Shown here piece by piece: positions 3,015 through 53,918 of a stretch of DNA of 64,000 bases. Made by a program: the position numbers and the translations under genes. Under the pieces are notes generated by a model. It did not search any database and had not been told where the DNA came from. It worked only from the letters and a program-made list of their open reading frames with translations. The stretch covers positions 12,960 through 76,959 of the forward strand of contig JAUSAO010000003.1 in NCBI GenBank assembly GCA_030652475.1. The letters are read 5' to 3'. The DNA comes from Gallionella sp. GTDB taxonomy: Bacteria > Pseudomonadota > Gammaproteobacteria > Burkholderiales > Gallionellaceae. The stretch's first letter is position 1. Every line of letters begins with the position of its first letter.

Positions 3015-3197
3015 TTAATCAGCGCTTCTTTGGCACTCTACCACGGCAGCACGACGATACCACAAGCACAATCCTGCCCCGATTATCAGCGCCCAAGCTG
3101 CCAGACGCACCAGAGCGGCGATGCCGTATCCAAGTAACCCAAAGCCGGTGACGTGCGTCCAGTCGTCGTCAACTTTGGTTTGATTGGAAAATTCCAT
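3015..3197 (-). CDS. Hypothetical small membrane protein (60 aa)
   Basis: ATG-initiated ORF with a long hydrophobic stretch (GLLGYGIAALVRLAAWALIIGAGLCLWY), downstream of aroC. Confidence 0.35.
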   Translation of the reverse strand: MEFSNQTKVDDDWTHVTGFGLLGYGIAALVRLAAWALIIGAGLCLWYRRAAVVECQRSAD

Positions 3198-3266
3198 GCT
3201 TTACTCGAATTCAACGTCAATACCGCCGGGGTAGCCCGGCGGCTATATTACGCTAGGGTATGCGCT

Positions 3267-4361
3267 TTACCGAATTCTGGGGGTCGCACACACCACATCC
3301 CCGTTCTGTCCCCGATTCCGCAGCGCATGATCCATCAGCACCAGCGCCAGCATCGCCTCGGCAATCGGCGTGGCGCGGATGCCGACGCATGGGTCGTGGC
3401 GACCTTCGGTGGCGACTTTCACCGCCTCGCCTGCTATGTTGATCGAGTTGCGTTCGAGGCGAATGCTGGAAGTAGGTTTGATGGCGTAGTTCGCAACGAT
3501 GTCCTGCCCGGTAGAAATGCCGCCGAGGATGCCGCCCGCGTGATTGGATAAAAACCCGTCAGGCGTCATCTCGTCGCCGTGTTCGCTGCCCTTCTGCGTC
3601 ACGCAGCCGAAGCCCGCGCCTATCTCAACCCCTTTGACTGCATTGATATTCATCAACGCGTAGGCAATTTCGGCATCCAGCCGGTCAAACACCGGCTCAC
3701 CCCAGCCGACCGGGACATTCTGTGCGACTACAGTGAGCTTCGCGCCGATGGAATCACCGGATCTGCGCACCGCGTCCATGTAATCTTCCAGTTGTGCGAC
3801 ATAGCTCGCGTCAGCGACGAAAAAACTGTTACCCTCGGCGCGTACATCGTCCCAGCTTTTGAACGGCACTTCGATCTCGCCGAGTTGCGCAAGATAGCCG
3901 CGCACCACGACGCCGTATTTTTCATTCAGCCATTTTTTCGCGATCGCTCCTGCCGCAACACGGCTAGCCGTCTCGCGTGCAGATGCGCGCCCGCCGCCTC
4001 TGTGGTCGCGAAAACCATATTTTTGTGTGTAGGTGTAATCAGCATGTCCGGGACGAAAGGTCTCGGCAATATTACCGTAATCCTTGCTGCGCTGGTCTTC
4101 ATTGCGGATCAGCAAGGCGATCGGCGTGCCGGTCGTCTTGCCCTCGAACACGCCGGAGAGGATTTCCACCGTGTCCGACTCGCGCCGTTGCGTGACATGC
4201 CGCGATGTGCCGGGCTTACGTCTGTCCAGATCATGCTGGATATCCGCCTCGCATAGCGCCAAACCGGGCGGACAGCCATCCACCACACAGCCGATCGCCG
4301 CCCCGTGTGATTCGCCGAACGAAGTCACTGTAAATAATGTGCCGAGTGTATTTCCTGACAT
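3267..4361 (-). CDS. aroC: Chorismate synthase
   Basis: MSGNTLG...[25 protein letters not shown] and GRHDPCV signatures; start set at ATG 4361. Confidence 0.97.
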
Positions 4362-25395: not shown

Positions 25396-25469
25396 TGGAG
25401 CGGGTGAAGGGGATCGAACCCTCGTCACTTGCTTGGGAAGCAAGAGCTCTACCATTGAGCTACACCCGC
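25396..25469 (-). tRNA. tRNA-Gly (CCC)
   Basis: Reverse complement folds as a cloverleaf: gcgggtg acceptor, D arm gctc/gagc, anticodon loop ttcccaa, T loop ttcgatc, encoded CCA; 74 nt. Confidence 0.96.
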
Positions 25470-26603: not shown

Positions 26604-27284
26604 ATGACCGACGACCTAACCAAACGCCACATCCGCAGCTACGTACTCAGGCAGGGCAGGGTCACGGTCGCGCAACAGCGTGCCGTTGACACGCTGCAAC
26701 CCGTTTTCGGCATACCCTACAGCGTGCAACCGCTCGATCTGGCTCAGGCCTTTGGCCGCAGCGCACCCAAGATACTGGAGATCGGCTTCGGCATGGGCGA
26801 CAGTACAGCGCTCATCGCCAAAGACCATCCCGAAAACGATTACCTGTGCCTGGAAGTGCATACCCCGGGCGTGGGCAATCTATTCAAGGTGATGGACGAA
26901 CAGAAACTGACCAATATCCGCATCATCCAGCACGACGCGGTAGAAGTGCTGCGCGACATGATAGGCGAAGCTACGCTGGACGGCGTACACATCTTCTTCC
27001 CCGACCCGTGGCACAAGGCGCGCCACAACAAGCGCCGCCTGATTCAGGGGCCGTTCATCACAAAGCTGATGACCAAGCTCAAACCCGACGGCTATATCCA
27101 CGTCGCGACCGACTGGCAGGATTACGCCGAACAGGTGTTACAGGTATTGAGCGACGAGCCGCTGCTGGAAAACACCGCCACCGACTACGCCCCCCGCCCC
27201 GACTACCGCCCGCTCACCAAGTTCGAGAAGCGCGGCCTTAATCTGGGACACGGCGTGTGGGATCTGGTGTTTAAAAGGAAGTAA
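26604..27284 (+). CDS. trmB: tRNA (guanine-N7)-methyltransferase
   Basis: [37 protein letters not shown] and TKFEKRG. Confidence 0.97.
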
Positions 27285-27326
27285 CCACCGTAGGCTGGCG
27301 GTGAGGAACGAACCCCAGCTGGGCTG

Positions 27327-27626
27327 TTATACCAGATGAACCTCTACGCGCTTGCCCAGCGCGGCGGCGTATTTGCGCAAAGTGCTCAGGCTGGGCGAAT
27401 GTTTGCCGGTAGCCAGTGCACTCTCCAGCCTTGCGATGGCGGGCGCTTTTGTTCCCATACGTTCAGCGACCTGCGCCTGCGACAATCCAGCGGCACGGCG
27501 CGCAGCCAGTATCTCGTCCAGAATAGCGAATTCTTCACGGTTGAGGCGTTCGTGTTCAACACGAACCTCAGGATTTTCCAGCATCTTCGCGACCATCTGT
27601 TCATGCGTCATGGTTTCGGTTTTCAT
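27327..27626 (-). CDS. XRE/HTH antitoxin (HigA-like)
   Basis: AARRAAGLSQAQVAERMGTKAPAIARLES HTH and SPSLSTLRKYAAALG; ATGA overlap with the toxin stop. Confidence 0.88.
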   Translation of the reverse strand: MKTETMTHEQMVAKMLENPEVRVEHERLNREEFAILDEILAARRAAGLSQAQVAERMGTKAPAIARLESALATGKHSPSLSTLRKYAAALGKRVEVHLV

Positions 27627-27946
27627 TTCCTTATCTCCTTCATTCTTTCTTCGGCAATCCGGCGCTCCCTGATCGGCGTTTTCTGCGATTTCTTCACAAA
27701 GGTATGCAACATGACGATACGGCGACCCACCAGTGTGCAATAAAACACCCGTGCGACACCTTCAGCACCCTTGAGACGCAACTCGAACAATCCGCCGCCA
27801 AATGCTTTCGTGTGTGGCTCGCCCAGATTCGCGCCATATTCCATCATTCGCACAGTCAGCCCGATATAACGCGCCTGCAAAGTCGCAGGCAATACCATAA
27901 TTTCGGCTTGCACCGCATCGTTGTAATAGGTGATGGTATAGGACAT
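27623..27946 (-). CDS. RelE/ParE-superfamily toxin (HigB / Gp49-like)
   Basis: [10 protein letters not shown]...GLFELRLKG...RVFY...[15 protein letters not shown] pattern; toxin-first order. Confidence 0.88.
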
Positions 27947-27955
27947 GCGCAAATA

Positions 27956-27971
27956 ATAACAAATATGTTAT
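27956..27971. promoter_or_regulatory. Palindromic putative antitoxin operator
   Basis: ataaca-aata-tgttat, 10-25 bp upstream of the toxin ATG. Confidence 0.55.
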
Positions 27972-28105
27972 CAAAATTCAAGTTCGCCCCGACTACCGCC
28001 CGCTCACCAAGTTCGAGAAGCGCGGCCTTAATCTGGGACACGGCGTGTGGGATTTGGTGTTTAAGCGGAAGTAAGCACCTACCGTACTTCACCCTCTCAC
28101 AGCCT

Positions 28106-29311
28106 TTAAGGCTGCGCCGGTTCGTCCTTCAGGAATACTTCCAGCAAATCGTTCAAGAACCGTTGCCCCTGTAGCGTCGGGGCGATGCGCTGGTGGTCGC
28201 GCTGCAACAATCCGCGCTTCTCGGCGACCAGTAATTCGCGCTGTATCGCAATCAGCGGCAGGCTGGTGCGCTCATTGAACAGCACGGAATCGAAACCTTC
28301 GTTCAAGCGCAGTGCGTTCATCATGAATTCGAATGCCAGCTCATCGCGCCCGACTGCATTCTCGGTCTGTATCGGCGCGCCTTGCGCCACTTGCTGCATA
28401 TAGGCCTGCGGCTGCTTGTAGCGCGCCTGGCGGATGATCTTGTCCGGAAAACTGATCTTGCTGTGCGCGCCCGCGCCTATCCCCAGATAGTCGCCGAATT
28501 TCCAGTAGTTGAGATTGTGCTTGGCGCGGCGATTGGCTTGTGCGAACGCGGAGGTCTCGTAATGCTGATAGCCGTTTTCCGCCAGCAGATGCTCTATGCT
28601 TTGCTGCATGTCGGAACTGGCATCGTCGTCCGGCAAGGACGGCGGATTACGGTAAAACAGCGTGTTCGGCTCCAGCGTCAGGTGATAGGCGGACAAGTGC
28701 TGCGGCCTGAATTCCAGCGCAGTCTGCACATCCTGCAAAGCCTGCGCCAGCGTTTGGTTCGGCAGCGCATACATCAGGTCGAGGTTGATGTTGTCGAAGT
28801 GCTGCTGGGCGATGGCGATGGCGGCTTTCGCCTCGTCAGCAGAGTGGATGCGTCCCAGCGCCTTGAGATGAGTATCGTTAAAACTCTGTATCCCCATCGA
28901 CAGGCGGTTAACACCCGCCTCGCGGAAAGCGGCAAACTTGTCCGCTTCCACCGTACCCGGATTAGCCTCCAACGTAATTTCCGCATCGCCTGCGAGTGGC
29001 AGCAGCATGCGCACCTGACGCAATATCTCCTCGACGCCAGCGCCGGAGAGCAGGCTGGGCGTGCCGCCGCCGAAGAACACCGTATATACCTTGCGTCCCC
29101 AGATTTGCGGTAAGGCCATCTCCAGATCGCGGGTCAGCGCGGCAACGTATTCTTTTTCCGGGAAAGCGGCCTTCGCTTCATGCGAATTGAAGTCGCAGTA
29201 CGGGCATTTCTTCACGCACCACGGGATATGGATGTACAGCGATAGCGGCGGCAAGGCCGTCGTGAAGTGGACGGATTGCGATTTGAATGAAACCGGTTGC
29301 AGCGAAATCAT
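28106..29311 (-). CDS. hemW: Radical SAM heme chaperone HemW
   Basis: LYIHIPWCVKKCPYCDFNSH, FFGGGTPS, LEANPG and NYWKFGDYLGIGAGAH. Confidence 0.93.
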   Translation of the reverse strand: MISLQPVSFKSQSVHFTTALPPLSLYIHIPWCVKKCPYCDFNSHEAKAAFPEKEYVAALTRDLEMALPQIWGRKVYTVFFGGGTPSLLSGAGVEEILRQVRMLLPLAGDAEITLEANPGTVEADKFAAFREAGVNRLSMGIQSFNDTHLKALGRIHSADEAKAAIAIAQQHFDNINLDLMYALPNQTLAQALQDVQTALEFRPQHLSAYHLTLEPNTLFYRNPPSLPDDDASSDMQQSIEHLLAENGYQHYETSAFAQANRRAKHNLNYWKFGDYLGIGAGAHSKISFPDKIIRQARYKQPQAYMQQVAQGAPIQTENAVGRDELAFEFMMNALRLNEGFDSVLFNERTSLPLIAIQRELLVAEKRGLLQRDHQRIAPTLQGQRFLNDLLEVFLKDEPAQP

Positions 29312-33597: not shown

Positions 33598-35715
33598 ATG
33601 GCTGACGCGGAATTACTCATCAAGGAAGTTTCCAGCTACCTGAAACCGCAGGATGTTGAACACGTCCGCGTTGCGATTGAATTCAGCCGCGTCGCCCATC
33701 AAGGCCAGACTCGCCACTCCGGCGATCCTTATGTCACGCACCCCATCGCGGTGGCGCTCATCCTCACGCCGCTGCACCTTGATGTGCAATCCATCATCGC
33801 CGCCCTGCTGCATGATGTGGTTGAAGACACCGAAATAAGCTCCGAACAGATTGCTGAAAAATTCGGCCTGCCGGTCGCCGAACTGGTGGATGGCTTGAGC
33901 AAGCTGGAAAAAATTCATTTCGAGACCCGCGAAGATGCACAGGCGGAAAACTTCCGCAAGATGCTGCTGGCCATGGCACGCGATGTGCGCGTCATTCTCA
34001 TCAAACTGGCTGATCGTCTGCACAACATGCGCACACTGGGTTCCATGCGACCCGAGCAATGCGAACGCATCGCCCGCGAAACCATGGAGATTTACGCCCC
34101 CATCGCCAATCGTCTTGGCCTGAATGACATCTATCAGGAGTTACAGGACCTCAGCTTCAAGCATTTACACCCGAATCGCTACGCCGTGCTGGCAAAAGCG
34201 CTCAAGGTCGCGCGCGGCAATCGTCGCGAAGTGGTCAGCAAGATACTCGACTCCATTATTCAGCAACTGGCCAAAAAACATATACACGCCGAAGTCACCG
34301 GCAGAGAAAAGAACATCTACAGCATCTACAAGAAAATGCAGATCAAGTCGCTGGCCTTTTCTGAGGTGCTGGATATTTACGGTTTCCGCGTGCTGGTGGA
34401 CGATGTTGACGCATGCTATGTCGCGCTGGGCATACTGCATGCCTTGTATAAACCGATTCCGGGGAAATTCAAGGATTACATTGCCATCCCCAAATCCAAC
34501 GGCTACCAGTCGCTGCATACCACGTTGTTCGGGCCGTTCAGTACGCCCATAGAAATCCAGATACGCACCCGCGAAATGCACAAGATTGCCGATGCGGGCG
34601 TCGCATCGCACTGGCTGTACAAAAGCGGACATTCGTCCATCAACGAACTGCACAAAAAAACCCACCAGTGGTTGCAGGAGCTTCTGGAAAGCCTCAACGA
34701 AAGCAGCAATTCAGCCGAGTTCATGGAGCACCTGAAGGTGGATCTGTTTCCCGATGCGGTGTATGTATTTACCCCCAAAGGCAAGATACTCTCACTGCCG
34801 CGCGGAGCCACGGCGGTTGATTTCGCTTACAGCGTACATACCGACATCGGTAACCGCTGCATTGCCGTCAAGATCAATCATGAACTGGTGCCGCTGCGTA
34901 CCGAACTCAGAAATGGCGATCGCGTGGAAATCATCACCGCGCCGCACGCCAAACCCAATCCGGCCTGGCTCTCCTACGTCACTACCAACAAGGCACGCAG
35001 CCACATCCGCCACTTCTTCAAGACCATGCAGTCCGACGAATCCGCGCAACTCGGCGAACGTTTACTTAATCAGGCCTTGCAGGCGCTGGGAATCAAGCCA
35101 TCGGAAATAAGGGAAAGCTGCTGGGACAAGCTGCTCAGAGATACCGGCGTAAAAACGCGTCAGGAAATGCTCGCCGATATTGGCCTGGGGCGCCGCCTGA
35201 ATATGGTGGTTGCACGGCAACTGGCCTGCAGCGGAGAATCCATCTCCATTGAAAACATAGCCAACCCGGTCATCACCATTCAAGGTACGGAAGGCATGGC
35301 GGTACAATTCGCCACCTGCTGCCGCCCGATACCCGGCGACCCCATCATCGGCGTAATCAAGAGCGGACAGGGACTGGTGGTGCATACGCACGACTGCGCT
35401 TCCCTGCGCAAAGGCCACAACAGCAACAACGGACAATGGCTGGATGTCGTATGGGACAAAAACATCACGCGCACCTTCGCGGTCAGCCTCAAACTGCTGG
35501 TCGCCAATCAGCGCGGCGTGCTGGCCAAAGTCGCGGCTGCCATCGCCGAAGCGGAATCGAACATCGAGAACGTCAGCTTTGCCAACGAAGGCGAATACAC
35601 CGCGTTGCACTTCACACTGGAAGTAAATAACCGCCAGCACCTTGCAGGAAGAATGCGCAGCATGCGCATGATCCCCGAAGTGATCAGAATATTCCGGGTG
35701 CAGAACACGGGATAA
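33598..35715 (+). CDS. spoT: Bifunctional (p)ppGpp synthetase/hydrolase
   Basis: HD motif (LLHDVVEDT), KLADRLHNMRT, synthetase YQSLHT, TGS and ACT domains; follows gmk-rpoZ. Confidence 0.95.
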   Translation: MADAELLIKEVSSYLKPQDVEHVRVAIEFSRVAHQGQTRHSGDPYVTHPIAVALILTPLHLDVQSIIAALLHDVVEDTEISSEQIAEKFGLPVAELVDGLSKLEKIHFETREDAQAENFRKMLLAMARDVRVILIKLADRLHNMRTLGSMRPEQCERIARETMEIYAPIANRLGLNDIYQELQDLSFKHLHPNRYAVLAKALKVARGNRREVVSKILDSIIQQLAKKHIHAEVTGREKNIYSIYKKMQIKSLAFSEVLDIYGFRVLVDDVDACYVALGILHALYKPIPGKFKDYIAIPKSNGYQSLHTTLFGPFSTPIEIQIRTREMHKIADAGVASHWLYKSGHSSINELHKKTHQWLQELLESLNESSNSAEFMEHLKVDLFPDAVYVFTPKGKILSLPRGATAVDFAYSVHTDIGNRCIAVKINHELVPLRTELRNGDRVEIITAPHAKPNPAWLSYVTTNKARSHIRHFFKTMQSDESAQLGERLLNQALQALGIKPSEIRESCWDKLLRDTGVKTRQEMLADIGLGRRLNMVVARQLACSGESISIENIANPVITIQGTEGMAVQFATCCRPIPGDPIIGVIKSGQGLVVHTHDCASLRKGHNSNNGQWLDVVWDKNITRTFAVSLKLLVANQRGVLAKVAAAIAEAESNIENVSFANEGEYTALHFTLEVNNRQHLAGRMRSMRMIPEVIRIFRVQNTG

Positions 35716-52785: not shown

Positions 52786-53918
<1,133 letters not shown>

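Follow-up and report, generated by a model that had tools for sequence, protein, structure and literature searches.

How toxin–antitoxin (TA) gene pairs move among chromosomes without mobility genes is a long-standing question, and it is raised in concrete form by a Gallionella locus at which such a pair lies between two copies of the 3' end of trmB, the gene for tRNA (guanine46-N7)-methyltransferase. The window, the whole stretch of 64,000 nucleotides (nt) that was analysed, corresponds to G000:C92:12960-76959 (G, C and L label genomes, contigs and loci); G000 is a metagenome bin of 3.06 Mb in 146 contigs, with a completeness of 99.5% and a contamination of 4.9%. We estimate at roughly 55% the probability that this locus is a scar of integrase-free recombination with related Gallionella DNA, in which cargo was inserted and a gene end was duplicated. 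All of the components are known, and the locus is a clear natural example of known processes, not a new mechanism or a new type of integrase-less element.

A repeat search identified a single direct repeat, at 27195-27289 and 27985-28079, with copies of 95 nt that are 96% identical and 790 nt apart from start to start. Copy 1 (plus strand) consists of the last 29 codons of the working trmB, the stop codon and 5 nt further, in frame. Copy 2, on the same strand, is a stranded trmB 3' end whose frame is intact and which carries a second allele, TTG/AAG/CGG. The original prediction, made from the letters of the window, had the last 90 bp of trmB (27195-27284) recurring at 27985-28074; this is exact, and the repeat extends 5 nt beyond it. 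There are four mismatches, three in the coding part and one just past the stop codon (TAACCACC vs TAAGCACC in the 5 nt that follow it). The coding mismatches, CTG/TTG (Leu), AAA/AAG (Lys) and AGG/CGG (Arg), are all synonymous, and the first 90 nt of both copies encode the same 29-residue peptide, again as predicted. The initial 69 nt are identical and form the longest identical run. Since the 95-nt repeat occurs exactly twice in the 3.06-Mb genome, it is neither a chance match nor a dispersed repeat.

The differences between the copies bear on the nature of the second gene end. The probability that three of three coding changes would be synonymous by chance in a dead copy is 0.013-0.021. Moreover, the TTG, AAG and CGG states of copy 2 are found together in the functional trmB of another Gallionella genome (G063), and at least two of the three appear to be derived. 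Because the same three codons co-occur in a working gene, copy 2 is best regarded as a natural allele, and the codon states indicate that the two trmB ends are natural alleles rather than a working copy and a drifted duplicate. The earlier suggestion that the duplicated ends stem from related alleles is therefore upheld by the synonymous differences and by the co-occurrence in G063.

The cargo between the copies is a two-gene unit on the minus strand, predicted to encode a higB-type toxin (27623-27946; 107 aa, Gp49 type in the RelE/ParE superfamily) and a higA-type antitoxin (27327-27626; 99 aa, XRE/HTH_3). The toxin matches PF05973 (E=1e-24, 86.9 bits vs a cut-off of 23.9), although its score against the NCBIfam RelE/ParE model is under the cut-off, and the antitoxin matches PF01381 (E=4e-11, 43.2 bits vs a cut-off of 23). 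The antitoxin gene has an AAGGAG ribosome-binding site and overlaps the end of the toxin gene by 4 nt (27623-27626). Toxin and antitoxin match chains A and B of one solved HigBA complex (PDB 6AF3), with E values of 3.7e-5 for the HigB chain and 2.6e-8 for the HigA chain. The putative TA promoter, predicted by a promoter scan (27953-27981, minus strand), has a -35 hexamer TTGAAT, an extended -10 element TATTAT and between them a 17-nt spacer with the operator palindrome TAACAAATATGTTA. By fold family, gene order and coupling, the pair fits a HigBA-type type II TA system. It shares with the solved pair the toxin-first gene order, the 4-nt overlap, the domain content and an operator palindrome in the promoter, whereas the sequence similarity to that pair is distant.

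Of the flanking genes, trmB (26604-27284, plus strand) is intact, and its 226-aa product matches PF02390 (E=1e-54) and the TIGR00091 equivalog (183 bits vs a cut-off of 112.65). Convergent with it on the minus strand is hemW (28106-29311), which encodes a radical-SAM haem chaperone (TIGR00539 equivalog, 372 bits; PF04055 and PF06969 also matched). The gene calls made earlier for TrmB, HemW, the HigB/Gp49 toxin and the XRE antitoxin are thus upheld by profile matches. The claim that only the TA pair and its operator lie between the repeat copies holds for the presence of both but overlooks a hairpin of 32 nt (27288-27319), part of one or more hairpins resembling repetitive extragenic palindromes (REP) directly after the trmB stop codon (27284-27319; GTAGGCTGGCGGTGAGGAACGAACCCCAGC). 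This hairpin family has about 50 copies genus-wide, at 90-97% identity and many of them as inverted pairs, and the same hairpin follows the trmB stop codon at equal distance in the nearest relatives (G097, G116, L137, L138 and L140). On this comparison the hairpin is native to the trmB flank of the clade, and because it is placed likewise in the nearest relatives, copy 1 plus hairpin represents a clade-typical haplotype. A terminator-like match on the minus strand (27302-27284) makes the hairpin a possible bidirectional terminator. At the other end, copy 2 starts 3 nt past the conserved edge of the TA unit, and between copy 2 and the hemW stop codon lies a spacer (28080-28105) that matched nothing in 155 congeneric genomes or in metagenome contigs of the Joint Genome Institute (JGI). 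The spacer shows short resemblances only, to the sequences that follow the REP palindromes in L138 and G098.

We next consider the origin of the TA unit. Beyond the genus, the comparisons covered plasmids, phages, viral contigs, the JGI contigs and 5.8 billion proteins. Many congeners have homologues of the pair with 74-79% nucleotide identity, located on a different contig from trmB. When 12 homologous TA loci were aligned with G000, similarity spanned the interval from the antitoxin stop codon to the -35 hexamer, and the flanks were unrelated in every case. The sharp edges shared by these loci imply that the portable unit is a promoter-to-stop module of about 655 bp. This distribution of one family over many unrelated contexts supports the view that the TA pair was acquired, as the original prediction of a cassette proposed. 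The closest relatives, at 85-89% protein identity, are in Gallionellaceae-type metagenome-assembled genomes and metagenome contigs, and none is near trmB or hemW. More generally, the nearest relatives of both TrmB and HigB belong to Gallionella, Sideroxydans or Nitrosomonadales; exact-protein look-ups of the antitoxin and TrmB found nothing. Plasmids and phages contained distant and partial TA matches only (65-75% nucleotide identity) and viral contigs contained no relative of the TA pair, so a phage or plasmid origin was rejected. The 95-nt repeat has no match in plasmids, phages or viral contigs either. The TA family is present at about 60 loci, and gene-end repeats are missing at most of them; repeat flanking is therefore not a universal trait of the family. 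G000 itself has a paralogous HigBA pair with 70% nucleotide identity beside a flagellin gene (L002, G000:C100:6233-9845), neighboured by further TA pairs of PIN/Phd-like and BrnT/BrnA-like types.

Comparison of the trmB-hemW junction in relatives shows that it is a general hotspot without a fixed insertion point. In one clade of the genus the two genes lie side by side in convergent orientation, and the junction varies greatly there. In G004, G009, G044, G046, G073 and G090 the 3' ends overlap by about 35 nt, which makes these true empty sites; in the first three of these genomes (L007, L014 and L084) the overlap was seen as coding regions running tail-to-tail on opposite strands. Where the alleles stand free of each other, both proteins have new C-terminal residues. 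Junctions of 40-190 nt, made up mostly of REP-type palindromes, are found in G098, G164, G166, G096, G127, G054, G042, G016, G118, G128 and L138. Other genomes have cargo: MazEF without a duplication (G050; L079, G050:C12:11050-12700), small secreted proteins (G084/G146/G126 and G113/G007), a 0.84-kb gene (G119), a BFD-like ferredoxin (G019/G149), an oxygenase with a methyltransferase (L137), or 2.1 kb with a Crp-like regulator and an outer-membrane beta-barrel protein (G006).

Some of these junctions also contain duplicated sequence. In G006 there is a stranded trmB end of the overlap type, decayed by a 3-nt deletion and two stop codons. About 58 codons (at least 174 nt) of the hemW 3' end are stranded in G019, and in G097 a degenerate duplication of about 110 nt beside hemW comprises the last 25 nt or so of trmB, the hairpin and some 40 nt of adjoining sequence. 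The original prediction had looked to relatives for empty sites and for other cargo between the same repeats; empty sites and other cargo do exist, but the other inserts are placed elsewhere or come with a duplication of hemW instead. A stranded trmB 3' end was found only in G000 and G006 among the 148 Gallionella genomes with trmB, and besides G000 in none of 300 high-quality genomes sampled from the order. Four double trmB matches in the order-level sample come from a single gene whose match was split or from a full-length paralogue, not from stranded ends. A truncated-looking TrmB match in G069 was likewise rejected as an att event, since it reflects about 18 aa (VEVSTPHPCAAGIVDCLPL; L085, G069:C26:~52935-52990) inserted in frame, just upstream of the position at which the G000 repeat starts.

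Further small rearrangements were observed at this junction. In L075 (G149:C6:33400-34600) a REP doublet of about 125 nt sits inside the 3' end of the BFD-like [2Fe-2S] gene, between perfect copies of about 41 nt from the end of that gene; the uninterrupted version occurs in G019. In L069 (G097:C43:~3140-3476) and L071 (G116:C121:1-190) the contigs break shortly after the trmB hairpin in a shared sequence (..TTTCGGGTTCGTCATTCGAG..), which resembles the terminus of a mobile element present in several copies; it had no Rfam match.

The signature seen at trmB is not confined to trmB. Comparison of G000 with itself revealed about a dozen unique two-copy repeats around small cargos, and several of these repeats are gene ends. 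On C47 (3783-4860) the 3' end of a pabB-like gene, with the stranded copy in frame, brackets a CcdAB pair, and the copies differ by 11 synonymous and 3 non-synonymous codons (11:3; the corresponding count at trmB on C92, around HigBA, is 3:0). A 56-nt remnant of an older ccdA adjoins the stranded pabB-like copy. Elsewhere 5' ends are duplicated: that of an MBOAT gene around a DegT-type aminotransferase gene (C11:8047-9566; 11:3), that of a gene for 273 aa around two genes (C52:25464-28301; 3:1), and that of a gene starting MNRHVNAIAGRL around a RhuM-like gene (C25:29386-31108; codons not counted). In another genome, G058 (L061), a homologue of the HigBA pair is bracketed by a 176-nt GNAT 3' end (15:5), in the layout known from G000, with the complete GNAT gene first, the convergent TA pair next and the stranded GNAT 3' end last; about 44 nt separate the TA promoter from the beginning of the stranded fragment. 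HigBA homologues in two other organisms (L122 and L098) lie between duplicated 3' ends of VOC/glyoxalase genes, with repeats of 244 and 340 nt.

The copies on C47, on C11 and in G058 differ by 12-15%, with a strong synonymous bias and intact frames. In the C47 and G058 repeats, identity is about 85-88% and identical runs reach about 23 nt, and we infer from this low identity that exchange occurred further inside the gene and was accompanied by an illegitimate joint, rather than by crossover within the repeat. The variety of genes involved, the use of either gene end, repeat lengths that range between 41 and about 390 nt, copies that are allelic and the presence of cargo other than TA pairs all point to host recombination with related DNA and not to a dedicated system of att sites and an integrase. 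Gene-end repeats occur at about 4-5 of the 60 TA loci, as against about 10 such structures among the roughly 3,000 genes of G000, the latter number being an estimate from genome size and the comparison a rough rather than a formal one. This suggests that TA cargo is over-represented among repeat-flanked inserts.

We hypothesize that the donor was related Gallionella DNA carrying a trmB 3' end, the clade-typical REP hairpin and, downstream, the HigBA module, and that the recipient chromosome had hemW directly after trmB. Homologous exchange would have been located in trmB, and the other end of the incoming DNA would have been attached by an illegitimate joint in the resident trmB, about 90 nt upstream of its stop codon. 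The joint could have been made during integration, by homology-facilitated illegitimate recombination (HFIR); alternatively, the fragment may have been circularised earlier and then integrated by a RecA-mediated single crossover. Either route would yield trmB with the end of one allele, the cargo, the end of the other allele, and hemW. Because the convergent genes trmB and hemW almost overlap, or do overlap, the resident trmB 3' end would be almost the sole neutral site for the second joint, and the gene end may have been duplicated because this tail is nearly the only harmless landing place. Such a convergent overlapping pair can serve as a recurrent landing pad in this uncultivated lineage of iron oxidisers.

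The identical stretch of 69 nt should permit RecA to loop the cargo out again, and by what is known of minimal homology lengths, 69 nt of identity is enough for occasional RecA-mediated deletion. The repeat-flanked state could persist because loss of HigBA would leave cells poisoned by the stable toxin. It is thus plausible that TA addiction preserves the repeats, and the enrichment of TA pairs among repeat-flanked inserts would fit survivorship through addiction. The original prediction had already proposed addiction as a guard against loop-out; the idea itself is plausible and gains indirect support from the over-representation. Chromosomal TA loci are known to limit large deletions, and the TA system of the SXT element promotes its maintenance. 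As in such cases, the TA pair here lies between direct repeats able to recombine it out, and its loss would expose cells to a longer-lived toxin; the known cases, however, concern a large island, an integrative and conjugative element (ICE) or a superintegron, whereas here there are only the TA pair and a 95-nt duplication. Taken with the parallels at other genes, the trmB locus offers a testable picture of TA movement, in which TA pairs would be carried along with part of an adjacent gene by homologous and illegitimate recombination, and the resulting state would last since loss of the TA pair would be lethal.

An integrase-free route to a structure of this type has experimental precedent in conjugation assays for HFIR in E. 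coli, where single crossovers of a circle with truncated homology accounted for 56 of 60 events (PMC3240628, in which HFIR is also defined). In 14 sequenced clones a gene-end duplication of 109-950 bp stood beside the insert, and in true HFIR the non-homologous end was joined at microhomologies of 3-10 bp (PMC3240628). These products and the trmB locus share the order of gene end, foreign DNA and partial gene-end copy, the lack of an integrase, and duplications of variable length, of about 100 nt or longer. They differ in that the former are laboratory events with engineered plasmids (PMC3240628), whereas the trmB locus is a natural scar with a 95-nt repeat derived from two alleles.

Several observations weigh against a scar of this kind. 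The stranded copies in G000 and G006 have left boundaries within about 9 nt of each other despite different cargo and repeat type, a coincidence that random illegitimate joints would be expected to produce in about 5% of cases (a rough estimate). Both starts fall at a C-rich tract beside an internal GACTAC..GACTAC repeat, and the two events are clearly independent. The joint between the TA unit and copy 2, 3 nt from the TA edge, is unexpectedly tidy unless a later deletion trimmed it. The coincident boundaries and the tidy joint could reflect a breakage or deletion hotspot, later trimming, or site-specific activity. Among the genomes and contigs searched there was no donor haplotype (trmB, hairpin and TA pair without the duplication) and no empty site from the same species, and no TrmB more than 90% identical was found among the 5.8 billion proteins. 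A sliding-window comparison with G098, G097, G164 and G006 gave no usable breakpoint; the crossover point is not visible because these relatives are only 82-90% identical in nucleotide sequence. Lastly, G000 encodes ComEC and DprA, but these competence genes are near-universal and say little because most bacteria have them.

It is on account of the coincident starts in G000 and G006 and the tidy TA/copy-2 joint that we keep as the main rival, unlikely as it is, the possibility that the locus is the remnant of a site-specific integrative element, that is, a decayed island or an att-flanked, integrase-less unit resembling a cis-mobilizable element (CIME). An element whose attP contained the last 95 nt of trmB would have been integrated by a tyrosine or serine recombinase, deletions would have spared only the addictive TA pair, and a cognate integrase elsewhere could still mobilise the unit. 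Repeats that cover the 3' end of a gene through its stop codon are indeed typical of target-restoring elements, two allelic copies would be expected, and TA modules are typical island cargo. The stranded end in G006, with nearly the same left boundary and different cargo, looks as if related elements shared an attP, and there are about 15 tyrosine recombinases in G000, along with islands integrated at tRNA genes. Yet the 79-kb contig encodes no integrase, which agrees with the earlier claim that the unit has no recombinase of its own, and G000 contains no third att copy. No integrase-bearing insertion in trmB was seen in the 148 genus or 300 order genomes, nor an att in plasmids, phages or viral contigs. 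At the junction, the other inserts lie at different positions and involve duplication of different genes, and the pabB, MBOAT, GNAT and VOC loci would each need another integrase. Because stranded trmB ends are essentially absent elsewhere, a decayed island at a common attB was rejected as the lead explanation. For the same reason, and because other genes and cargo other than TA pairs share the signature, the proposal that trmB is the attB of a minimal mobile unit was not sustained.

CIMEs are att-flanked, integrase-less remnants of ICEs or of integrative and mobilizable elements (IMEs) (ICEberg 2.0, PMC6323972; review, PMC5704250). With them the trmB locus shares a small cargo between direct repeats taken from the 3' end of a protein-coding gene and the lack of a recombinase of its own; they are defined, however, by the att sites of a known ICE or IME with an acting integrase, and none for trmB was present in the collections searched.

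A duplication made in place as the TA pair landed, by fill-in of a staggered break or by template switching, with identical copies diverging later, is improbable. Duplications of variable length do flank other inserts in the genus (41 nt in G149, about 110 nt in G097), and copy 2 begins immediately next to the TA unit. Against this, none of the three coding differences alters an amino acid, even though one copy has no function (p ~0.013-0.021), and at least two of the three would have been derived in a dead copy and yet equal the natural allele of G063. The copies on C47, on C11 and in G058, 12-15% apart and biased towards synonymous change, argue for imported alleles and not drift, and the REP hairpin lies inside the repeats yet is native to the trmB flank of relatives.

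We consider it still less probable that, as the strong form of the original prediction would have it, the 790-bp unit of trmB end and TA pair moves recurrently as a circle and returns to trmB by homology, as a minimal cassette protected by addiction. Loop-out between the trmB repeats would yield such a circle, and a closed contig in the same assembly (C131, described below) suggests that circles of cargo plus gene end may exist in the community. No search found the unit or its joints a second time, however, and the TA family usually lacks gene-end repeats; C131 may itself be a tandem array or the DNA of another organism, given that its spoT is only 90% identical to that of G000.

An assembly artefact that fused two strain haplotypes through the shared trmB end is very improbable: G000 is a bin of 146 contigs with 4.9% contamination and k=141-style contig ends, but graph collapse is unlikely because the 69-nt identical run is shorter than this apparent k, the TA/copy-2 joint has no shared sequence to mislead the graph, and equivalent structures occur in independent assemblies (G006, G058, L122 and L098). 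Other known routes were rejected. An integron cassette is contradicted by the lack of an attC-type imperfect palindrome beside the TA pair, by boundaries unlike GTTRRRY and by the lack of an integrase on the contig. An integrative mobile element exploiting Xer recombination (IMEX) is disfavoured because the repeat is trmB coding sequence and not a dif-like site, although no separate dif search was made. As for a tRNA or tmRNA att site, the sole tRNA found is tRNA-Gly at 25396-25469, and there was no other Rfam match.

Beyond the scar at trmB, one may tentatively ask whether small two-gene addiction modules (HigBA, CcdAB and others) owe most of their spread in Gallionella to being carried along with the end of an adjacent housekeeping gene, a generalisation that we regard as doubtful. 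Short fragments consisting of a gene end plus a module, possibly circles such as C131, would enter the homologous gene of a related cell through host recombination, and addiction to the module would then block the reverse loop-out. If true, TA movement would be integrase-free and self-stabilising, and the razor-sharp boundaries of these modules at many unrelated sites would be explained.

Contig C131 (L101, 1-2363) has identical ends of 141 nt and closes to a cycle of 2,222 nt without a replication gene. It encodes a conserved pair of genes for 75 aa and 259 aa that belong to no Pfam family and that are paired in 11 other congeners in other contexts. It also contains the last 354 nt of spoT through the stop codon, 90% identical to positions 35362-35715 of the window, together with a (GGTTTGC)x4 repeat and a RhuM-like 3' fragment. 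The contig may represent a free circle that joins cargo and gene end, a tandem array, or DNA of another organism in the bin. Other closed or potentially closed contigs occur in the same bin. C132 is a closed contig of 1.6 kb with a Rep_trans replication protein and represents a small rolling-circle replicon, and C6 (70.5 kb), C46 (40.9 kb) and C118 (17.9 kb) have overlapping ends and are possible circular replicons.

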